From Spirochaetales bacterium (lineage in GTDB: Bacteria > Spirochaetota > Spirochaetia > SZUA-6 > JAFGRV01), in assembly GCA_016937215.1 (NCBI GenBank), contig JAFGWI010000009.1, positions 1,703-65,702 on the forward strand: a stretch of 64,000 bases of DNA, written 5' to 3'. Position 1 is the stretch's first letter. Every line of letters begins with the position of its first letter. A program made the translations under genes and the position numbers. Under the pieces are notes generated by a model. The model worked only from the letters and a program-made list of their open reading frames with translations, was not told where the DNA came from and did no database searches. Of the stretch, positions 1,341 through 11,874 are shown piece after piece.

Positions 1341-1439
1341 TGGTGAAGCACTAAAAAACTCAGCAACTTACTGTTGATTAAAAAAATTGAAGGCAGGCAA
1401 GGCCCGGATAATTCAATTATTTCAGACTTTTCCTGAAGC

Positions 1440-2066
1440 TCAGGAAAAATACTTTTTGGTGAACAATAACAAGGCCTTTTTCTTCAGGCTTTTTTGGGCG
1501 TCCTTCATGGCAACGATTAAAAGGCTGTTAAATGCCTTGATGTTGGCCATGTTTTCCAGGGTTTCCAGAATGATCATCCGGATCTTCACCGAGCTTCGAA
1601 GGTAGAGCGCGGCCAGCTCGGAGCCGCTTTGCATGATATTCAGCTGCCCCACTGCTGCTATGGCACAGGCCACCACTTTTTCATCATCATCCCACAGGCC
1701 TCGTCGAATAAAGGTATAGGCCGCTTTTTTACGACTGGCGACCAGTTGATTGATGATCTCGATGCGTTTTTTAGAATCATTCTGATGTAAAAAGGATTTT
1801 CCCAGAGTGTATTGCCTGTGAACCGACCGCAATTTGGTTAAAAAGGAATCCTCTGTTGCTGATGTTCCTGTTTCCCCAGGCTGGCTTAATTGTTTTTGAA
1901 GGTTTTCAAAGGCCTTTCGGATTCGGTGAAATTGATTTAGGGCGTTCTGGCCCTTATTCACATCAGGGTGATACAATTTTAGTAAGCGGCGGTAGGATTT
2001 TTTGATTGTTTCAAAGTCAGCTCCTGGCTCCACTTCCAGAATTCGGTAAATTTGCAACATGGTCAC
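1440..2066 (-). CDS. J-domain protein (DnaJ-like N-terminal J domain, HEAT/ARM-like helical C-terminus).
   Basis: The N-terminus reads IYRILEV..DFETIKKSYRRLLKLYHPDVNKG with an HPD motif. It overlaps the upstream SBD gene by 4 nt. It is the last gene of a five-gene minus-strand operon. Confidence 0.75.
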   Translation of the reverse strand: MTMLQIYRILEVEPGADFETIKKSYRRLLKLYHPDVNKGQNALNQFHRIRKAFENLQKQLSQPGETGTSATEDSFLTKLRSVHRQYTLGKSFLHQNDSKKRIEIINQLVASRKKAAYTFIRRGLWDDDEKVVACAIAAVGQLNIMQSGSELAALYLRSSVKIRMIILETLENMANIKAFNSLLIVAMKDAQKSLKKKALLLFTKKYFS

Positions 2067-2671
2067 AGGCTGGCTCTTTTCACAGCCTCGGCCTCGGCAA
2101 TAAGGGTTTCAAGTATCAAGGGCATTTCAATAATGGCCTGCCGATGTTCACGCTTAAGAGCCTCCTGAGCGAGAGTAAGATTTTCATAAATTTCAGAGGC
2201 AAAACTGCCTGAAAGAAGATGATGCTCCTGTGTCATTAACTGACTCAGGTGGCTGATATGCCTTTGAAGCCTGGTTTTTCTGTGATTCAGGTCGTCGCTC
2301 AGAAAATCCAGATTAAACACCTCGTCATAGCTTTCCACTGACAGGGTTTGAATCAGCTGCTTTTCGCTGGCTGTGTCCTCCATTTTGAGGGTGATTAATC
2401 CATGGGAATCAATGTGTATGGTCAGATCAATTTTGGGCTGGCTCTTTTTCTGGGCTTTTAATCCGGAAAGGACAAAGCGACCCAGTGATTTATTTTTGTG
2501 AGCACAGTCGGAATTTCCTTTGAGCAAATGAAGCTCAATGGAAAACTGGTTATCTGAAACAGTTGTTATGCTCTGAAAGGACTTTGCCGGTAATGGCGAG
2601 TTTTTTGGCACAAGTTTATAAAAGACATTTCCATCAATTTCTATTCCAATTGAATAGGGCAATTGATTCAT
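2063..2671 (-). CDS. Hsp70 (DnaK) substrate-binding-domain-only protein with no nucleotide-binding domain.
   Basis: Residues 5-105 align with the DnaK SBD-beta (SIGIE.DG....L..KN..P.K..Q.F.T..DNQ..I.L..G......NKSLG.F.L.G.........I..T..ID..G........EKQ). A helical lid-like tail follows. The N-terminal 380 aa of Hsp70 are absent, and the gene begins 6 nt after the upstream stop. Confidence 0.75.
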   Translation of the reverse strand: MNQLPYSIGIEIDGNVFYKLVPKNSPLPAKSFQSITTVSDNQFSIELHLLKGNSDCAHKNKSLGRFVLSGLKAQKKSQPKIDLTIHIDSHGLITLKMEDTASEKQLIQTLSVESYDEVFNLDFLSDDLNHRKTRLQRHISHLSQLMTQEHHLLSGSFASEIYENLTLAQEALKREHRQAIIEMPLILETLIAEAEAVKRASL

Positions 2672-2676
2672 CGCGG

Positions 2677-3273
2677 CTATTCCTTTGACAATTGTTCGGC
2701 CAGGGAAATAATAAGCTCAACCTCACCCACAGGAAGATCAACTTTCGAGGCAATCATCGCCGGTGTGAAGCCCTCGCTGTAATACATCAAAACTTTGTCC
2801 TTCAAGGGTAATTCCTCACTGATTTTCAGCGAAGGTGAGGGCTCAATTGTAACTGGCCGCTTTTTACTGATAATATCATTATATTCAATAGAGACCGAAG
2901 GCCTTCCTGTGTCACGTTTCAACAGGGCGATCTTTTTATCAGCCAGAATAAGATGCTCTTTTAAAAGACGAATTCTGTCCTCAATCAGCTGAATATTCTG
3001 ATCAGTGGTTGAATTCAGTTCCACTAAAATTTTTTCAACCTCTCCAGAAATATCATTCAAAATTTTTTGAGGGTGTACCATTCTTTTGATCCGTGCCCAG
3101 AGTATAAAATAAAGAATGGCCAAGCCGCTAACAACAATGGCTAGGGTTAGTATAAAGTTTTCCATATCAACTTCTAAAAATGAATTTTTTTTACGACCGT
3201 GACAAACCGCCATGGGCCGTTTCTCTTTTGACTGCTGGGGTTCCGCGAAATCCTGCCGCAGCCATTTTATCAT
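2677..3273 (-). CDS. Membrane-anchored coiled-coil protein. The C-terminal 30 aa weakly resemble a sigma region-4-like HTH.
   Basis: One TM helix (FILTLAIVVSGLAILYFILW) followed by a coiled-coil. The tail KVLMYYSEGFTPAMIASKVDLPVGEVELI parallels the fliA region 4 ([21 protein letters not shown]). The true start is possibly the internal Met before the TM. Confidence 0.5.
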   Translation of the reverse strand: MIKWLRQDFAEPQQSKEKRPMAVCHGRKKNSFLEVDMENFILTLAIVVSGLAILYFILWARIKRMVHPQKILNDISGEVEKILVELNSTTDQNIQLIEDRIRLLKEHLILADKKIALLKRDTGRPSVSIEYNDIISKKRPVTIEPSPSLKISEELPLKDKVLMYYSEGFTPAMIASKVDLPVGEVELIISLAEQLSKE

Positions 3274-3281
3274 AACACCAA

Positions 3282-3611
3282 TCAGGTGGTAATATCAATA
3301 TGCTGTCCCAAATCCGGGTCATGGTACACTTCTTTTTTATTTTTTTCTTCCAATTGTTGCCGCTTGTTATCTTTATTTTTCCGGTTCCTTTGCTCCTGTT
3401 TTTTTTGGCCTTCCTGGTTTACTTTATCGGCCCCCTCACCTATTTCCTGGGATTCATCAACAATGGTATCCTTAATTGCTGCCTGTTCTGCCAGCTCCAT
3501 TCCCTGAACCATCTGGGTATGGGGCAAATTCTCCTTAATATGGGCCTGTTCTTTACCAACCTGATTGATATGAGAAAACATCGTCTGCAAATCGATAGGA
3601 AGCATTGGCAT
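3282..3611 (-). CDS. Small charged hypothetical protein.
   Basis: 109-aa ORF, 4 nt from the FapA-like stop and 9 nt from the next gene. Lys/Glu/Gln-rich tail. No family recognised. Confidence 0.45.
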   Translation of the reverse strand: MPMLPIDLQTMFSHINQVGKEQAHIKENLPHTQMVQGMELAEQAAIKDTIVDESQEIGEGADKVNQEGQKKQEQRNRKNKDNKRQQLEEKNKKEVYHDPDLGQHIDITT

Positions 3612-3614
3612 AGG

Positions 3615-5555
3615 TTAGACAACTCTCCTTTTAAATTCTTCTTCGATGGCTTCGTATTTGGTAATACGAATCGTATTGTGTTCCAAAATAAAGGTAACAA
3701 ATTTGAATTCGTTTTTCACTTCCAAAAAAGCATCCTTAATATATAATTTGACTCCGGGAAAAACCTTTTCCGATGCGGAAATTTTACCGTCTTTTTTAAG
3801 AGCATCAAGATGCTCCCGGATTTCATTCATTTCCACATTCACCTGCTCAAGTTCTGCCAGACAGGTGTCTCTCTTTCCTGTAAGCTCTTGCAGATTGGCT
3901 TCCTTATCTTCTGAAAGCTTTCTTTGAACTTTTTTTAGATTCAAGAGAGTTTTGATATTGAGTTCAATTTCTTCCAGTTCTTTTTCAATTTCCATCTTAT
4001 TCTTTTCACAATTGACCAATTTTTCCTTGCTCAAGGGGTCATAACCCACTTCAAGAACTGTCTCTGTTCCCGCGATGGAGCCCAGGTTTTTCGCGTTAAT
4101 TTCTTCAGCCGCGCGGAGGTTTCCTCCTACAATTGAAGCCCGCCTTCCCTGGCAAATAATTTTTTTATTGGCATCCACATTGGAATGAAGAATACCTTCA
4201 TTAACCATAACATATTCAGAGGCCTCAATTTTGGCATGCTCGATAAATTTGGAGAAAACACTTTTGCCGCTTCTGACTTTACCTCCGTTTTTGCCTAAAA
4301 TACCCTGGTGCACAATAACATCACCCTCGGCATCTAGAATGCATTTACCCACATTACCCTTCACCTCGATATTTCCGGCTGCCTTTACGCTAAACCCATC
4401 CAACACGCTTCCCTTGATTATAACCGTTCCCAGAAAAAGGATATTTCCGGTTTGCAGATTAACATCACCATTAACTGTATAAATGGGTTCAACATTAATG
4501 CGGCCGCTCAAAAGCATAACTTGCCCATTTATTTCCGATATGGCCGTTGTACCGTCTTCAGAGAGCTTAACGTTTTTACCGATTTGGATTACTGTATCAC
4601 TGCCCGATTTGGCCGGTAAATTTTTACCAGTAACTGTTTTCCCATTAACACCCTTTTCAGGCAAGGTTTTTTTTGCCAAAACCTGACCAGCCACAACATT
4701 CTCGATTAAATTCAGCTCTTTAAAATCAACGCGCCCATCCTCTTCTTTAAGACTTACATTCTTGTGATCTGTATTAAAATGATATTGTATCTGAGCATCA
4801 TTACCATTAACAGGTTTCTGCCCCTCGGCAATTAAAATAGAGGTTGAATACTGTGGTCTGTCCTCGAATTCCTTAACAATATCTTCTTTAATTCCAAAAT
4901 AAACACCGTTATTTTCCAGAATCTTCTTGATATTTTCTTTGGATAAGTCAGCTCCACCGAGACGGGGAGGACTTACCTCCATGTAAACCTTCATTTCCAT
5001 ATCAACGATATCAACTGTCATAGTCGCGTCATTGATCGGGTTATAATCAAATTCTCCCACCTTTACCCAACGGTTTTCCGCGCGTTTCACCACCTTGGAT
5101 ATCATGGAGCTATCGTATTTGGTCACACCTCGCTTTAAAACCAAATCCAGGGCATTTTTCTCATTTGCCATCTTTCCCCTGCCAACGGCTTTTGTCACCT
5201 TAATATAAGCGCCATCATGGGTCAGGCGCACAAAAACCTCGCCATTGGCATCGCGTTTCTCGGTAATGTCACCAAAATCCTCAACAGAAAGATTCTCCAC
5301 TACACTATCGGCAGCTACCAGCTCTGTTCCTTCATAGACAAAAAGTTTCCATTCCTTGTCACCCACGCCAAACATGGCTTTCTGTCCTTTTTGGATTACC
5401 TCGTATTCCAAATCCTTTACAGGAATGCCCAATTCAATAGACGCATTGAGCAATGCCTCATTTATACTTTTACCCGTAATTTCAATGGTTTTATTACCCC
5501 TATCTTTTTCAGACTGGCGGTTCATAAATTCCCGTAATTGTGAAAGATTTACCAT
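3615..5555 (-). CDS. DUF342 / FapA-like (flagellar assembly protein A family) beta-helix protein.
   Basis: 646 aa. The central region has repetitive G-N/D-V/I-x-hydrophobic beta-helix repeats (GNILFLGTVIIKGSV..GNIEVKGNV..GDVIVHQG). C-terminal coiled coil. Shine-Dalgarno AAGGA sits 6 nt upstream of the ATG. First gene after fliA. Confidence 0.7.
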   Translation of the reverse strand: MVNLSQLREFMNRQSEKDRGNKTIEITGKSINEALLNASIELGIPVKDLEYEVIQKGQKAMFGVGDKEWKLFVYEGTELVAADSVVENLSVEDFGDITEKRDANGEVFVRLTHDGAYIKVTKAVGRGKMANEKNALDLVLKRGVTKYDSSMISKVVKRAENRWVKVGEFDYNPINDATMTVDIVDMEMKVYMEVSPPRLGGADLSKENIKKILENNGVYFGIKEDIVKEFEDRPQYSTSILIAEGQKPVNGNDAQIQYHFNTDHKNVSLKEEDGRVDFKELNLIENVVAGQVLAKKTLPEKGVNGKTVTGKNLPAKSGSDTVIQIGKNVKLSEDGTTAISEINGQVMLLSGRINVEPIYTVNGDVNLQTGNILFLGTVIIKGSVLDGFSVKAAGNIEVKGNVGKCILDAEGDVIVHQGILGKNGGKVRSGKSVFSKFIEHAKIEASEYVMVNEGILHSNVDANKKIICQGRRASIVGGNLRAAEEINAKNLGSIAGTETVLEVGYDPLSKEKLVNCEKNKMEIEKELEEIELNIKTLLNLKKVQRKLSEDKEANLQELTGKRDTCLAELEQVNVEMNEIREHLDALKKDGKISASEKVFPGVKLYIKDAFLEVKNEFKFVTFILEHNTIRITKYEAIEEEFKRRVV

Positions 5556-6072
5556 AAGTTCCTTCTTGGCTTTATTAAAATCCTCTTCGGGTCTGGACTT
5601 TAAACATCCTCCCCATCTTCAATAATGGCTCCTACCCTTTAAATATAATAAAAAACCAGGAGTGTTGCTATTTATTTACAGTTATTTGCATCATAGTATT
5701 TGTTCAGCCCATTGTTTTCCTGGAGCTTTTTCCTGGCCTCGAAAAGTTTTGAGCCGGTCTTTGGGCTTGCTGGTCATAAAGGCAAGCCAATTTATTGCTC
5801 GATTGTGAGTTTTTAAAACAAGCCCAAAGCCAAATCAGCAAAGTGAGTTTTTATGGCCTGCCTCATCATGGATCCAAAGACCAAGCTATTTTGCCGAAAT
5901 AAAGCATTATGCTAAACAACTTATTTTTTCTCACTCCAGTAGTTGCCCAAAAACAAAAAACATAAAAACCCTGGGTTAAAAGCCGTTAAAACCTTCAATC
6001 AGGTAAAATTGTCTTTGAGCAGCCAAGAAATGAGTGAAAAAGATGCAAAACCTACATTAATTATCGGCTAGT

Positions 6073-6858
6073 TTATATAATACCTTTTTTAATATTGCTT
6101 AATTTTGTACGTAATCGCATGATGGCTTTGGTATGCAATTGGGAAATCCGGGATTCGGTGACACTTAATACTTCACCAATTTCCTTGAGGGTCAAATCTT
6201 CATAATAATATAGCACAAGAACCTTTTTTTCTTTGTCAGGCAGTTCACTGATCGCTTCCACAATAACCCGCTTGATTTCATCTTTTTCCACTATCATGTC
6301 GGGATTCAGACTGGAAGGCGACTCAATACTATCTTCAATCGATATTTTATCACTATCCTCCCCTGTGCTCCACACATCATGAAGCGAGAGAATGGATGTT
6401 CCGCTTAATTTCAGCAAAAGCTGCTGAAATTCGTTTAAATCCATATTCATGGCCTTGGCAATTTCTTCATCAGTGGCCACGCGACCAAGCTGGGCTTCGA
6501 GAATACGTACCGTTTCTTCAAGTTCACGACTCTTTTGACGAACAGAACGAGGCACCCAATCGATTGATCGGAGCTCATCGAAAATAGCCCCACGAATACG
6601 GGTAACCGCGTAAGTCTTGAATTTTACGTGTTTATCAGGATCAAATTTCTCAATGGCATCGAAAAGTCCGAAAACACCATAACCAACAAGATCATCAAAT
6701 TCCACATTATGAGGCATGCCCATGGCAACTTTTCCAGCAACATATTTTACAAGAGGAGCATATTGTTTGACAAAAAAATCCCTGATTTTCGGATCCTTTT
6801 TGCGTTTGTACTGCTTCCAGAGATCCTGTTCTGATTTTCCTTCCAAGGTATTAACCAT
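6073..6858 (-). CDS. fliA: Flagellar sigma factor sigma-28 (FliA/SigD/WhiG family).
   Basis: Region 2 ([19 protein letters not shown]) and region 4 ([27 protein letters not shown]). 261 aa, downstream of flhF-flhG. Confidence 0.9.
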
Positions 6859-6863
6859 ATACT

Positions 6864-7613
6864 CTATCCTTCCTTGTCCCGCTGTAACCAGGTGTGAATT
6901 GCTTGCGCAGATTTACCCGGATCCTGAAGATATTCAGGAACATCCATTTTGGAATTCTTCTTTTCAGATGGTGAACCAATCTCCTCCCCACTGGAGGATT
7001 CAGAATTAAAGGTCGAAAAGGTGCCATCAAAATTATCCAGGGAAGGCATGTCGTCAATACCCATGTTATCAATGGTCGCGACATCATCCATTACCTGGCT
7101 TGGTTGATCATCATCGTCGAAATCAGCATCACTTTCATCATATCCAGAGCCTTTGCCATTATAGGAAACCGATTCAGCAGCGGCTGTTTCCTCAATATTC
7201 GATAAATCGGAAGAATCAAAGGATTCCGCGGCATCCATATCCGCACTATCTTCTGATTCAAGCTTTTTTTTGTTTTTTCGATAGGAACCTGCGGCTGAAG
7301 ATTCCTTTACCATATCCAATTCTTCACCAAAATCAGCCTGATAATCCTCATAGGGATTTTCACTATCGATTATCTCATCAATTTCAGTTCCTTTAGCCGG
7401 TTTCTCGATTGGATTATTTCCCGAAGAAGTTAATTCCGGTAAATAGCGATCGATAATAAAACCAATCCCAAAACCAAGGCCTCCGAAAATAACTGCTCCG
7501 AAAAGGGATCTTACGATAATTTCCCAAAAAGGTACACCGCCTATACCACCTGCCAGTATGGATAAAATCATAGCCACCAGAGCAAAAGCAATGATCACCT
7601 TCAAATTAACCAT
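6864..7613 (-). CDS. Hypothetical two-TM protein with a long acidic Asp/Glu/Ser-rich tail.
   Basis: The N-terminal 65 aa are hydrophobic and Gly-rich ([10 protein letters not shown]). The remainder is acidic low complexity. The gene sits between flhG and fliA, where Bacillus carries its che genes. Confidence 0.55.
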
Positions 7614-7734: not shown

Positions 7735-8604
7735 TTATTGCTCTCCTCCGAATAATTTTTTCAAGAACCCGCCTATACCGCTGCCTTCTTTGTATTCAAT
7801 ATTCTCAAGGCGTCCAACAATATGCTTCACACACATCGAAGCCTTGGATTTTCCGTCAACAATCAAAAAGGGACGCTGCTTAACAACAGCAGTATGAACG
7901 ATGGGATCATCAAAAACAAAACCAAGATAATCAACCTTGAGATTCAAAAACTGCCCGGCGATATTAATCACACGTTCAGCGACCTTTCGGCCCTCAGCCA
8001 CACTTTTGACTTTGTTAACCACAAGCTTTAAACCAATATTAATGTTATCAATCTCGGTCGCGATAATCTTGATAATGCCATAGGCATCGGTGATGGCTGT
8101 TGGCTCGGGAGTCGTGATAATCAAGGCATCGTCAGCTGAAGCGATAAAGGACAGCACATTGTTGGAAACACCGGCCCCTGTATCAACAATCAACACATCA
8201 GCCTCGGAAAGGGCGCTGAATTCGGTTATGATATTATTCCGTTCATCCTCTGACAGATTGGCAATTTTGGAAAAGCCCGATGCTCCGGCCACAATCTGAA
8301 TACCGTAATTAGTATTCTGGATGATTTCTCCCATCTTTTTTTGTTTGCGAATAAGATGATAAAGATTATAACGCGGAATAATCCCCAAGACCACATTCAC
8401 ATTGGCTAATCCAAGATCAGCATCCATCACCACCACTTTTTTACCTAACTGGGCATAAGCGATGGCCAAATTGATGGCAATATTGGTTTTGCCAACTCCT
8501 CCCTTTCCACTGGATATGGCAATTATCCGTGTATTTCTGCGTGTACCTGTTTTTCCCATTATTTCTCGTAATTTCTGTGCTTGATCCGCCATTTTTAACT
8601 CCAT
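7735..8604 (-). CDS. flhG: MinD-like ATPase FlhG (YlxH/FleN).
   Basis: Deviant Walker A SSGKGGVGKT. Overlaps flhF by 10 nt. Confidence 0.85.
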   Translation of the reverse strand: MELKMADQAQKLREIMGKTGTRRNTRIIAISSGKGGVGKTNIAINLAIAYAQLGKKVVVMDADLGLANVNVVLGIIPRYNLYHLIRKQKKMGEIIQNTNYGIQIVAGASGFSKIANLSEDERNNIITEFSALSEADVLIVDTGAGVSNNVLSFIASADDALIITTPEPTAITDAYGIIKIIATEIDNINIGLKLVVNKVKSVAEGRKVAERVINIAGQFLNLKVDYLGFVFDDPIVHTAVVKQRPFLIVDGKSKASMCVKHIVGRLENIEYKEGSGIGGFLKKLFGGEQ

Positions 8605-9782
8605 AGGCTATTGATTGGGGAAAGCTTTTTCCCGTATTTTTTATCCAAATACTCCCGGTCAAGATGAAAACCCTCAAGTTTGAGAATCAACTTTAAAATA
8701 GTTGCTTCTTCTATATCCTGGGGAACAACCTGACCATCGGTAAAATATGAAACCGGTTTTTGCTTGAGAATCAAGGAACTGATAACATTACCAATACTGC
8801 TGGTTTCATCAAGCTTTGTTATTATTATCGACTGATATTTAAAGGGCTCAAATTGTCTCAGGATTTCTTCCATATCCGAGGCTTTTACCGAGGCGCTCAT
8901 GGCCAGATGGGTATCATTATCAGAGCCCACAGCCTCCAGTACCTTCTTCATCTCGGCCAGTTTATCATAATCATTGGGACTCTTTCCAATGGTATCGATC
9001 AGGATCAAATCAGTGTCATTATAAAGGGCCAGGGTTTTTTTAAGGTCCTCAAAGGTCTCGACAAAACTCACTGGAATTTGCATGATCTCGGCATAGGTCT
9101 CGATTTGTTTTTTGGCCGCGATTCTGTAATTGTCAATCGTAATCATTCTGACTTTTTTGCAAGCACCTCGCTGTGGATTTATCCCATGAATCGCAGCCAA
9201 TTTGGCAATGGTTGTGGTTTTTCCAACTCCAGTGGGCCCGACGATAGTACAAATATGGGGTTTTCTTGTGCTTTGGGAAAAGGGTTTATGGATTTTTATC
9301 CCATCGGCAATCCAGTCGATCAAAGCCTTGTGCACCATCTCCTTGTTATCCAGCTCCTGAAGAGAAAATTCCGACTCCAGGCGCTGCACCAGTAAAGCGA
9401 TTAATGTTTCGGAAAAATCATTTCGCTTGAGTAATTCAGTGTACTCATCCATGGCAGGATGGGTCCCGCGGCCGTCAAGGGGTTTTTGAGTGCTGATTTG
9501 CTCTTTTAAAGACTGAATTTCCTTTAAAATCATGGACATGGTGGTATCTTTTTTAACATTTTGAAGAATTTTCATTTTTTCAGTTTCAAGATTGAGTTTC
9601 GTCGAAGGACGCGATTCCGCCAGATAACCGGTAATCTCGATCCCCTCCTGGGCAAAAAAGCCTAAAAAACCGCCCCTTTTTATTCCGCGGTGAGTCAAAA
9701 TACGCGCGTTTTCACCATACTGCTCTTTCATGCGGTCGATTGCGTCCTTTAAACTATTTCCCTGCATTGTAAAATACTGCAT
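8595..9782 (-). CDS. flhF: Flagellar SRP-type GTPase FlhF.
   Basis: [22 protein letters not shown] and TKLDET motifs. Confidence 0.9.
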   Translation of the reverse strand: MQYFTMQGNSLKDAIDRMKEQYGENARILTHRGIKRGGFLGFFAQEGIEITGYLAESRPSTKLNLETEKMKILQNVKKDTTMSMILKEIQSLKEQISTQKPLDGRGTHPAMDEYTELLKRNDFSETLIALLVQRLESEFSLQELDNKEMVHKALIDWIADGIKIHKPFSQSTRKPHICTIVGPTGVGKTTTIAKLAAIHGINPQRGACKKVRMITIDNYRIAAKKQIETYAEIMQIPVSFVETFEDLKKTLALYNDTDLILIDTIGKSPNDYDKLAEMKKVLEAVGSDNDTHLAMSASVKASDMEEILRQFEPFKYQSIIITKLDETSSIGNVISSLILKQKPVSYFTDGQVVPQDIEEATILKLILKLEGFHLDREYLDKKYGKKLSPINSLWS

Positions 9783-9792
9783 TCACCGCTCC

Positions 9793-11874
9793 TTACTGCA
9801 CTCTTATCTCGCCAAGGCTTTCAACAGAAACCTCGGATATCATTTCCGGTATGGATAACACAACCAGATGGGGAATTTCCCGATGAGCGCTGGATTTTAC
9901 CAGATAACGTGCTGCTTCCGAACAAAGTATCACAGGATGATAGCCCTGTTCCTGAACAGCCTTGATCGAAGTTGTCAAAGCGCCTATCCATTTTCTTTGA
10001 ACCGAAGGCTCCAGAGCCGCGACCGGACCACTTGTTGTATCCACTTTGGATTCAATAATCTGGTGTTCAAAGGCAGGGGCAATGGTTAACACCCTGAGTT
10101 TTTTTTCTTCGTCAGCGTATTGAAGACAAATCTGCCGCCGCAATGACTGGCGTACTTTTTCTATTATATAAGAGGGATCCTTGGTTACATCACCATAATC
10201 GGTCATGGCCTCAAGAATGGTCACAATATTTCTGATGGAGATCTGTTCATCAAGCAAGCCCTGCAACACCTTGTGAATCTGGCTCAAGGTGAACATCTTG
10301 TTGACTTCATCAACCACAGCAGGATAATCATTTTTCAAAGTATCCAGGATAAGCTTCACTTCCTGACGGCCCAGGATTTCCGAAGCATGCTGCTTGATAA
10401 TCTCGGTAAAATGGGTTGCAATTATCGAAGGCGGGTCGACAACCGTATATCCGATTTGCTCAGCCTGTTCACGATAATCTTCTGACACCCAAATGGCAGG
10501 TAAACCGAATGCAGGGTCAAAGGTCTTTTCACCTGGAACTGTTTCAGTAATTCCGCCAGGATTAATGCAAAGATAATGGCCCATGCGGATCTTACCCTTG
10601 CCGACTTCAACACCCTTTATTTTAAAGGAATATTCCGGCGGCTCAAGGCGCATATTATCAATAATACGAATGCGCGGGACAACAATACCCAGATCCAGAG
10701 CCGATTCCCGGCGAATTCTCGTTATTCGGTTTAGCAACTCAGCACCCTGTTCCTTATCCACAAGAGGAATTAAGCCATAGCCGATTTCCAAAGACAAAGG
10801 ATCCAATGGCACCACAGGTGAAATCTCCTTGGGGGCTTCACCTTCCTTGGCCTTAACCGCCTTTACCTTTTCCGCGTCCTCTTGTGCTATAGCCTTACGC
10901 GACAAGATAATACCCAAAAAGCCGAGCAACAAAGCCAGTGGTACAAGCACATACCAGGGAAATCCGGGCAAAATACTTAAAACAAACAAAATCGCGGCAG
11001 ATATAAAATAAGGCCTTGCCTGCACGGTGAATTGATCGGTGACATCCTGGCCAAAGGATGCCTCTGATACGCTCCGAGTTACGATTATACCAGTTGATAC
11101 GGATACAAGAAGAGCAGGCAATTGCGAAACAAGACCATCACCAATAGCCAGTGGTATATATGTATTCAGTGCCAGATCCATGGATTCGGCATGCATAACC
11201 AGGCCAACTATCATTCCACCGATAATGTTTACCAAGGTGATGATAACACCGACCTTTACATTTCCCGAAACGAATTTTGAAGCACCATCCATGGCTCCAT
11301 AAAAATCAACCTCCCGTTGAAGCTGATGTTTTTTAAAGGTGGCTTCTTCTTCGGTGAGCAATCCTGAGTTATACTCTGCTTCTATGGCCATTTGTTTTCC
11401 TGGCAAAGCATCAAGAGTAAAGCGGGCCGCGACCTCGGCAACCCGGGTCGAACCTTTTGTAATGACCATGAGCTGAACAATCATGATAATAACAAAAATG
11501 ATAAGACCGATGACAATACCTTCAGAAGCAGCCGTACCGACTACAAAGGTCCCGAAAGCTCTGACGATTCGGCCGTCAAAATGGCTTCCTTCAACAAGAA
11601 TCAAGCGTGTTGATGAAATGTTCAGGCCTAATCCGAATACTGTTAAAATCAAAAGCAAAGTGGGGAACACAGAAAATTCAAGGGCATGCTTGGTATAAAG
11701 CACGGTTAAAATTACCAGAAGACTCAGAACCAGATTGATGGTCATAAGTGTATCCAGAATAAAAGTCGGCAATGGAATAATGATCATCATAACAAAAAGG
11801 ACCACTCCAATGGCAACAAACAGTTCCGTGGGTTGTTTAAAAAGATTTTGGGTTATTCTTTGCGCGTCAGCCAT
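9793..11874 (-). CDS. flhA: Flagellar export apparatus protein FlhA.
   Basis: 693 aa with an N-terminal 8-TM domain and a cytoplasmic C-terminus. Conserved FHIPxG-like region. Confidence 0.95.
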   Translation of the reverse strand: MADAQRITQNLFKQPTELFVAIGVVLFVMMIIIPLPTFILDTLMTINLVLSLLVILTVLYTKHALEFSVFPTLLLILTVFGLGLNISSTRLILVEGSHFDGRIVRAFGTFVVGTAASEGIVIGLIIFVIIMIVQLMVITKGSTRVAEVAARFTLDALPGKQMAIEAEYNSGLLTEEEATFKKHQLQREVDFYGAMDGASKFVSGNVKVGVIITLVNIIGGMIVGLVMHAESMDLALNTYIPLAIGDGLVSQLPALLVSVSTGIIVTRSVSEASFGQDVTDQFTVQARPYFISAAILFVLSILPGFPWYVLVPLALLLGFLGIILSRKAIAQEDAEKVKAVKAKEGEAPKEISPVVPLDPLSLEIGYGLIPLVDKEQGAELLNRITRIRRESALDLGIVVPRIRIIDNMRLEPPEYSFKIKGVEVGKGKIRMGHYLCINPGGITETVPGEKTFDPAFGLPAIWVSEDYREQAEQIGYTVVDPPSIIATHFTEIIKQHASEILGRQEVKLILDTLKNDYPAVVDEVNKMFTLSQIHKVLQGLLDEQISIRNIVTILEAMTDYGDVTKDPSYIIEKVRQSLRRQICLQYADEEKKLRVLTIAPAFEHQIIESKVDTTSGPVAALEPSVQRKWIGALTTSIKAVQEQGYHPVILCSEAARYLVKSSAHREIPHLVVLSIPEMISEVSVESLGEIRVQ

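Follow-up and report, generated by a model that had tools for sequence, protein, structure and literature searches.

What does a J-domain protein act on when the Hsp70 encoded beside it has no ATPase domain? The question is raised by a 64-kb stretch of Spirochaetales DNA (contig JAFGWI010000009.1; the whole stretch of 64,000 nucleotides is called the window below). The gene in question encodes a protein with an N-terminal J domain and a HEAT-like C-terminal solenoid, which we call J-HEAT, and the gene before it encodes the substrate-binding domain (SBD) of an Hsp70 and no nucleotide-binding domain (NBD). We favour, at a probability of about 0.6, the reading that J-HEAT is a class C co-chaperone dedicated to an Hsp70 of the flagellar operon and that the window lineage most likely recruits an Hsp70 encoded elsewhere. 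What is unusual here is the combination of an NBD-less partner with a J domain that is still under constraint. The features on which the argument turns are the following:

1440..2066, minus strand: J-HEAT gene (open reading frame (ORF) list, Pfam and NCBIfam), 208 residues, GTG start at 2066
2060, minus strand: alternative ATG start of J-HEAT, 6 nt downstream of the GTG, giving 206 residues
1884..2060, minus strand: J domain, residues 3-61 (PF00226, AlphaFold2 (AF2) model, identity to E. coli DnaJ)
1962..1970, minus strand: HPD motif H33 P34 D35, codons CAC CCT GAT
1860..1883, minus strand: inter-domain linker, residues 62-69, variable, fast-evolving and of low model confidence
1446..1859, minus strand: C-terminal alpha-solenoid, residues 70-207, a capping helix (70-94) and then four HEAT-like hairpins of the phycobilisome (PBS)-lyase/alphaRep type
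2063..2671, minus strand: SBD-only partner gene, 202 residues, beta-sandwich plus helical lid, PF00012 profile positions 391-492
2063..2066, minus strand: GTGA overlap of the J-HEAT start (GTG 2066..2064) with the SBD-only stop (TGA 2065..2063)
~8 nt upstream of the J-HEAT start, minus strand: Shine-Dalgarno-like GAAAAGAG, from the sequence

The SBD-only protein starts directly after the interdomain linker, with MNQLPYSIGIEID aligned to DnaK ...DVTPLSLGIET. Its AF2 model has a predicted local distance difference test score (pLDDT) of 91 and a three-helix lid, and Foldseek aligned it to crystal structures of the DnaK SBD at E ~1e-16. Two details of this model concern the lid. Residues 119-127, between helix A and the three-helix lid, form a low-confidence break, and the root-mean-square deviation (rmsd) to closed DnaK SBD structures is ~16 Å despite the E-value. 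Because of this break and this deviation, the lid might not dock in the manner of DnaK. Only 5 nt separate the SBD start from the stop of the preceding gene in the window, which encodes a 198-residue transmembrane (TM) protein (p198); therefore no NBD is hidden between the two genes. No Hsp70 NBD, no GrpE and no J domain other than that of J-HEAT was found anywhere in the 64-kb window.

Among 13 loci, the NBD-less form of the Hsp70 occurs only in the window, in L086 and probably in L002. In L086, whose J-HEAT is 53% identical, the tail of p198 is followed by a 203-residue SBD-only gene and then by J-HEAT; the L002 contig begins inside the SBD, and this locus is probably NBD-less too. In all ten of the other loci where the upstream gene is complete (L001, L003-L006, L083/L084, L085, L087, L088, which is the complete Spirochaeta africana genome CP003282, and L089, which carries the S. 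isovalerica protein), the gene before J-HEAT encodes a full-length Hsp70 of 554-567 residues, so that the partner has an ATPase domain in these loci and lacks one in the window, in L086 and probably in L002. In the alignment, the SBD-only lid shares features specific to this full-length paralog. Since such features must come from a full-length gene, the direction of change is deletion, and the SBD-only gene is, on this comparison, a derived state produced by deletion of the NBD and linker from the paralog.

Could the missing half simply be encoded elsewhere? If the NBD of the paralog were a separate gene in another part of the genome, J-HEAT could act on that, which would account for continued selection on the J domain, and 64 kb of the genome is in view. 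We regard this as distinctly unlikely: no NBD fragment lies near the locus in the window or in L086, the SBD-only protein lacks the linker that J-stimulated allostery requires, and the literature searched gave no precedent for such a split.

In the full-length paralog itself, the NBD motifs are intact (DLGTTNS, DLGGGTFD, NEPTAAALAY and GGSxRIP), it usually has an Arg at the position of the J-contacting DnaK R167, its linker is less hydrophobic and its lid is short. It is 37-44% identical to E. coli DnaK (~366-410 bits) as against 31-35% to HscC (~228-277 bits). Bit scores fall in the order DnaK > HscA > HscC, and scores on the NCBI DnaK and HscA equivalogs stay below cut-off. An assignment to HscC was rejected, as the paralog has no L1,2 insertion in its SBD-beta and is closest to DnaK, and one to HscA was rejected as well, as it scores nearer to E. 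coli DnaK and under the HscA equivalog cut-off. L001 has a separate grpE-dnaK-dnaJ operon a few genes downstream. On account of the sub-cut-off scores and of this separate operon, the paralog is taken as distinct from DnaK, a specialised, DnaK-derived Hsp70 that is widespread in the Spirochaetia.

Is the J domain of J-HEAT of a kind that could serve such an Hsp70? The sequence-only reading had described an N-terminal J domain with an HPD motif, to be judged by whether the HPD region scores as a J domain in profile searches. It does, far above threshold: residues 6-58 score on PF00226 at E=2.9e-15, their 56.5 bits exceeding a gathering cut-off of 27.8 (Pfam), and the motif lies at residues 33-35. 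The AF2 model places the J-domain helices at residues 3-9, 18-32 and 40-61 with pLDDT >94. HPD is carried by 47 of the 48 aligned family members and in 13/13 loci. Numbered from the GTG start, J-HEAT matches E. coli DnaJ position by position, with Y25, R26, R27, H33, P34 and D35 all kept; NCBI holds the protein from the ATG start (P0001, 206 residues, labelled 'MAG: J domain-containing protein [Spirochaetales bacterium]'). For the J domain, identity is 40% with that of E. coli DnaJ compared with 26-27% with those of HscB and DjlC; it is of DnaJ type and not of HscB or DjlC type.

The remainder of the protein is not that of DnaJ. Neither PF01556 nor PF00684 matched at E<=0.1 (Pfam) and a Gly/Phe (G/F) region was likewise not found, which agrees with the earlier statement that the G/F region, zinc finger and client-binding domains of DnaJ are missing. 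The DnaJ equivalog model gives 44 bits against a cut-off of 377, which excludes a class A DnaJ; the CbpA model covers residues 2-58 only, at 45.7 bits against 403, which excludes class B; and the HscB model TIGR00714 matches the J region only, with E=0.046 and 13.8 bits against 46.75, which excludes HscB. By these profiles J-HEAT is classed as a class C (type III) J-domain protein (JDP). No whole-protein model for it exists in Pfam or NCBIfam, and the literature searched contains no description of a J-HEAT protein.

We then asked whether this J domain has relaxed in the lineages without an NBD. Synonymous sites are saturated among the three NBD-less lineages (proportion of synonymous differences, pS, 0.77-0.88), which precludes a proper ratio of nonsynonymous to synonymous substitution rates (dN/dS) and confines the analysis to comparisons of the proportion of nonsynonymous differences (pN) between domains and clades. 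Among the NBD-less lineages, pN is 0.22-0.34 for the J domain, 0.18-0.24 for the HEAT domain and 0.44-0.57 for the linker, scored over residues 61-85; among NBD-retaining lineages it is 0.29-0.38 for the J domain. Because its pN is the same as or below that of the NBD-retaining lineages, the J domain has been under purifying selection after NBD loss and is not relaxed. Family-conserved positions are fully kept in the NBD-less clade at 17 of 21 sites in the J domain, including Y25, R26, H33, P34 and D35, and at 42 of 52 in the HEAT domain.

The same values bear on the idea that both genes are becoming pseudogenes after the NBD deletion. The NBD has gone, and so has the CheA-like gene that follows J-HEAT in other loci, as decay would have it. 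However, in three lineages at 53-61% identity both ORFs remain unbroken and keep their lengths and the 4-nt overlap, pN is 0.18-0.34 where pS is saturated, and both AF2 models are highly confident. Decay is already largely refuted, and we give it almost no weight.

The C-terminus had been described as helical and repeat-like, with a profile search of the repeats as the check. With the single sequence this description falls short of threshold: HEAT_2 (PF13646) scores E=0.0083 and 16.8 bits against 27.7, the NblB model of NCBIfam gives E=2.6e-5 and 23.9 bits against 300, and a phmmer search of the PDB with the single J-HEAT sequence returned the J domain alone and no HEAT match. AlphaRep proteins are designs built on the PBS-lyase HEAT-like (PBS-HEAT) consensus. 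When a profile of 48 family sequences was compared with the PDB, alphaRep chains matched over residues 95-205, at E-values between 5e-44 and 1e-11. The AF2 model of J-HEAT has a mean pLDDT of 94.7 and a tail made of one long helix and eight helices in four hairpins; pLDDT is 85 at residues 71-80 and >93 in each 10-residue block from residue 81. Foldseek places the tail on alphaRep structures with an rmsd of 2.5-3 Å over ~123 columns, and the orthologue in L088 passes the HEAT_2 gathering score with 44.4 bits. The earlier description is thereby borne out, and the tail is assigned to HEAT_2 through the family profile, the orthologue and the model, not through the single sequence. Between the two domains, pLDDT is 59 over residues 61-70, and homologues hold inserts of up to ~130 residues at the linker position.

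How closely is J-HEAT tied to its neighbour? Hsp70 and J-HEAT genes overlap by 4-17 nt in 13/13 loci examined. An overlap of the ATGA type with the SBD gene had been claimed for the window; the overlap stands, yet its sequence here is GTGA, and L002 and L086, the closest two relatives, have ATGA at that position. The further claim of stoichiometric co-expression goes too far, as a 4-nt overlap fits co-translation or coupling and implies no fixed ratio. The overlaps support co-translation of J-HEAT with the preceding Hsp70 gene. Downstream, a pattern match from a consensus scan likely marks the end of the operon:

1394..1406, minus strand: weak terminator-like hairpin with T-run, 34 nt past the J-HEAT stop

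Two inverted copies of a ~120-nt element lie just downstream of the J-HEAT stop, at 654-773 and 1206-1324. They are complementary over 52 nt at 90% and over 72 nt at 75%, are the sole two copies in 64 kb, and flank ~430 nt of non-coding, AT-rich DNA in which long A-runs occur (about 1013-1040); each copy has its own small hairpin, e.g. 723-754. The possibilities include an element resembling a miniature inverted-repeat transposable element (MITE) and a rearrangement scar from loss of the CheA-like gene.

A word-indexed search returned three close J-HEAT homologues (58%, 53% and 31% identical), and an exhaustive hidden Markov model (HMM) search of 1.84 billion cluster representatives returned 65 proteins at E<=1e-30. 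The top 150 HMM matches are mostly full-length J+HEAT proteins of 195-240 residues, along with some variants of 260-340 residues with a low-complexity insert between J and HEAT; the remainder are giant generic HEAT-repeat proteins. A word-indexed search with the 48-sequence profile was swamped by generic J-domain words and gave 9 proteins, and a scan of genome contigs by J-domain peptide patterns gave at least 4 spirochete loci, which is not the true distribution. All source names on family members are Spirochaetia, Spirochaetaceae or Spirochaetales, and by these matches the family has so far been seen in the Spirochaetia only, Spirochaeta africana included.

In the ten loci with the full-length paralog, the gene order is flhA-flhF-flhG-x-fliA-fapA-~107 residues-~160-275 residues-Hsp70-J-HEAT-CheA-like, as far as the contigs reach. 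In 13/13 loci J-HEAT lies next to a specialised non-DnaK Hsp70 gene in the same orientation (SBD-only in the window, L086 and probably L002). The CheA-like gene directly follows J-HEAT in 10/10 loci with the full-length paralog and is absent from the window and L002, the two NBD-less loci in which this could be assessed. It encodes a Hpt domain, a weak P2 and a HATPase_c domain, and matches CheA models partially. The apparent co-loss of NBD and CheA-like gene may point to a connection between the kinase and the ATPase cycle. Its coordinates are as follows:

L001, 10617-12464: CheA-like gene
L083, 10681-12558: CheA-like gene
L088, 10335-12089: CheA-like gene
Seven other loci, equivalent position: CheA-like gene

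Two candidate Rosetta-stone fusions were examined and set aside: P0170 (952 residues) is a tandem Hsp70 and P0136 (679 residues) a multi-J-domain protein, and neither joins an Hsp70 or client to J-HEAT.

This fixed setting can be set against the assignment of J-HEAT as a generic stress co-chaperone that helps DnaK in the manner of CbpA or DnaJ and whose flagellar position is incidental. Some automatic labels read 'curved DNA-binding protein CbpA' (others read 'HEAT repeat protein'), and the CbpA J domain is the top PDB match for the single J-HEAT sequence (phmmer, E=2e-8). However, the C-terminal domains of CbpA and DnaJ are absent, the place behind fapA...Hsp70 does not vary among 11 loci with FliA identities of 71-91%, and L001 encodes DnaK, GrpE and DnaJ in an operon of their own. 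A generic role is therefore very improbable.

J domains with an HPD motif dock on the NBD and linker of Hsp70 and trigger ATP hydrolysis, and the non-J part of class C J-proteins gives specificity for client or location (PMC10410713, PMC8215388). The J-HEAT gene ends an extension of the flagellar superoperon that is specific to spirochetes, fliA-fapA-small protein-TM/HTH (helix-turn-helix) protein-Hsp70-J-HEAT. Within this framework, J-HEAT would serve the neighbouring Hsp70 much as HscB serves HscA: its rigid HEAT solenoid would be a targeting or client-binding module for a specific partner related to the flagellum or to chemotaxis, and its J domain would trigger ATP hydrolysis by the Hsp70, which would then clamp onto the HEAT-held partner. 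Candidate clients or regulators are sigma-28, FapA, the TM/HTH protein and the CheA-like kinase. Because the full-length paralog is paired with J-HEAT in every other lineage sampled, the ancestral and usual target appears to be the ATPase domain of the neighbouring gene, not DnaK. In the window lineage, a clean deletion has taken the NBD and linker and left a stand-alone SBD, and the CheA-like gene has gone as well. Since the J domain has been kept despite NBD loss, retargeting to an Hsp70 encoded elsewhere is favoured: present-day J-HEAT, probably together with the SBD-only protein, would recruit such an Hsp70, most likely housekeeping DnaK, and the SBD-only protein would act as a holdase or competitor. 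The suggestion in the sequence-only reading that J-HEAT is an adaptor bringing DnaK to cargo held by the SBD-only or FapA-like protein is in this light a reasonable hypothesis. DnaK, DnaJ and GrpE are cited in PMC2782266 as positive factors for enterobacterial flagellar gene expression.

A bolder version is that the Hsp70 has been split and rewired, J-HEAT coupling the SBD holdase and its client to the ATPase of DnaK, and that spirochetes have an undescribed flagellum/chemotaxis module of Hsp70, J-protein and CheA-like kinase; we offer this only tentatively. The data establish the domain architecture, the family, its synteny, the deletion of the NBD and the selection on the J domain; co-chaperone activity, a client from flagellum or chemotaxis, and DnaK cross-talk are what we infer.

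Several observations weigh against a dedicated co-chaperone that has been retargeted. The cognate NBD is missing in the window lineage, which leaves the J domain without a partner in cis. The evidence for a flagellar or chemotaxis link is all conserved gene order. In a FliA+FapA+FlhG tree, the branching of the NBD-less lineages has 32-49% bootstrap support, which does not resolve it. The SBD-beta of the NBD-less clade is 31-40% identical to relatives compared with 44-70% among relatives, and its HEAT domain is also more diverged than FliA or FapA. FliA (74-81%) and FapA (46-51%) are as identical to relatives as relatives are among themselves, and the J domain is not unusual either (28-48% to relatives compared with 25-59% among them). 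Within the HEAT domain the family motif 'LGNSGK' has become 'LVASRK' in the NBD-less clade, with A104I, G109V and G112R in a cluster. Because of the SBD-beta and HEAT divergence and of this changed patch, function could have shifted in the clade. The changed stretch is the turn of the first HEAT repeat ('R.FAAR.LGNSGK'), J-HEAT residues 104-112 at window positions 1757-1730, and is a candidate for a surface altered as the NBD and CheA-like gene disappeared.

These points lead to the most serious rival, in which the J domain has been orphaned or repurposed, J-HEAT and the SBD-only protein form an ATP-independent holdase or regulatory pair, and the J domain binds SBD-beta or another partner. The J domain reportedly also contacts SBD-beta in the DnaK-DnaJ complex (PDB 5NRO). 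Neither the locus nor the rest of the 64 kb encodes an NBD, SBD-beta and HEAT have diverged beyond the housekeeping flagellar proteins with a local HEAT patch changed, and the loss of the CheA-like gene along with the NBD suggests repurposing of the whole module. Set against this, HPD, Y25 and R26/R27 are kept in three NBD-less lineages despite saturated synonymous sites, and we know of no role of the HPD motif besides NBD activation. We consider repurposing unlikely, and prefer recruitment of an Hsp70 encoded elsewhere.

The surroundings of the pair agree with the flagellar setting. A minus-strand flagellar superoperon runs from ~1440 to beyond 30 kb of the window and contains, ahead of the SBD-only gene:

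9793-11874, minus strand: flhA
8595-9782, minus strand: flhF
7735-8604, minus strand: flhG
6864-7613, minus strand: FlgV-like 249-residue protein between flhG and fliA, with two TM helices and an acidic tail
6073-6858, minus strand: fliA (sigma-28)
3615-5555, minus strand: fapA-like gene, Jag_N + FapA_N + FapA (Pfam)
3282-3611, minus strand: 109-residue protein
2677-3273, minus strand: p198, with a weak DUF6115 match (Pfam)
2677..5555, minus strand: upstream sub-module of fapA-like gene, 109-residue protein and p198, in the same order in 11 related loci

A sub-module of FlhF/FlhG-FlgV-sigma28-FapA-YjfB-'TM+HTH' is conserved across flagellated bacteria (PMC11607428), and that account has no Hsp70 or J-protein. 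The 249-residue protein at 6864-7613, for which Pfam and NCBIfam gave no match, fits the description and position of FlgV in the same paper. Its second TM helix contains an Arg, its acidic tail is long and disordered, and its C-terminus is short and hydrophobic/basic. In the FapA-like protein, Jag_N (E=4e-13) precedes FapA_N and the FapA beta-solenoid, an architecture shared by all related loci. A 517-nt non-coding spacer (5556-6072) separates the fliA stop from the fapA start, compared with ~2-22 nt in all related loci, and an GCCGATAA octamer, the sigma-28 -10 consensus, lies 4 nt past the fliA stop (6061-6068, minus strand). At this octamer and at the one at 3424-3431 (minus strand), a sub-operon promoter of the sigma-28 type was considered and rejected, as neither has a TAAA at the right spacing. 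An Rfam scan of the whole window, this spacer included, gave no match.

What would such a pair mean? The literature searched does not describe an Hsp70/J pair in a spirochete flagellar superoperon beside sigma-28, FapA and a CheA-like kinase; it would point to chaperone control of periplasmic-flagellum assembly, of sigma-28 or of chemoreceptor-array biogenesis. The lineage with its NBD deleted and its J domain kept is a natural experiment on J-protein retargeting and on the role of an isolated SBD in vivo, and the cultured Spirochaeta species in the family are a starting point for experiments. A counterpart may exist in Borrelia burgdorferi, where the flgB superoperon may end with an Hsp70 gene, bb0264, annotated 'heat shock protein 70 (dnaK-1)'. 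According to the literature, this superoperon runs from bb0294 to bb0264 with fapA as bb0267, and DnaK-1 is a candidate infectivity factor but not essential; the searches gave nothing relevant on bb0263-bb0266 or on natural NBD-less bacterial Hsp70s.

Specialised Hsp70s with a JDP encoded next to them are known from HscA/HscB and from HscC with DjlB/DjlC (PMC8215388), and the spirochete pair can be compared with both. Like J-HEAT, HscB is a small (~170-210 residues) class C JDP with an N-terminal J domain and an all-helical, partner-binding C-terminus, and its gene, with that of a specialised Hsp70 next to it, belongs to the operon of its own pathway (PMC8215388). However, the C-terminus of HscB is a three-helix bundle where J-HEAT has a HEAT-like solenoid, its J domain is 26% identical to that of J-HEAT whereas the J domain of E. 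coli DnaJ is 40% identical, the pathway is a different one (iron-sulfur) and the gene order is reversed, J-HEAT coming after its Hsp70. The HscC system shares a ~556-residue, short-lid Hsp70 with dedicated class C J-proteins encoded nearby (PMC8215388), but each of DjlB and DjlC is a tail-anchored membrane protein of 475-483 residues without HEAT repeats, and HscC has the L1,2 insertion whereas the spirochete paralog is nearer to DnaK. TopJ of the Mycoplasma terminal organelle is likewise a class C JDP for a motility organelle, and its model matches the J domain with E=7e-11 (NCBIfam); the J domain alone matches, at 41 bits against 300, and TopJ exceeds 800 residues with unrelated downstream regions. 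NblB, CpcE/F and alphaRep have the same ~31-residue helical-hairpin repeat as the C-terminal 110-135 residues of J-HEAT but no J domain, and NblB remains at 23.9 of the 300 bits of its cut-off. DnaJ and CbpA (class A and B JDPs) resemble J-HEAT in J-domain sequence, with equivalents of Y25, R26, R27, H33, P34 and D35, but J-HEAT lacks a G/F region, a zinc finger and C-terminal beta-sandwich client-binding domains, in place of which it has its solenoid.

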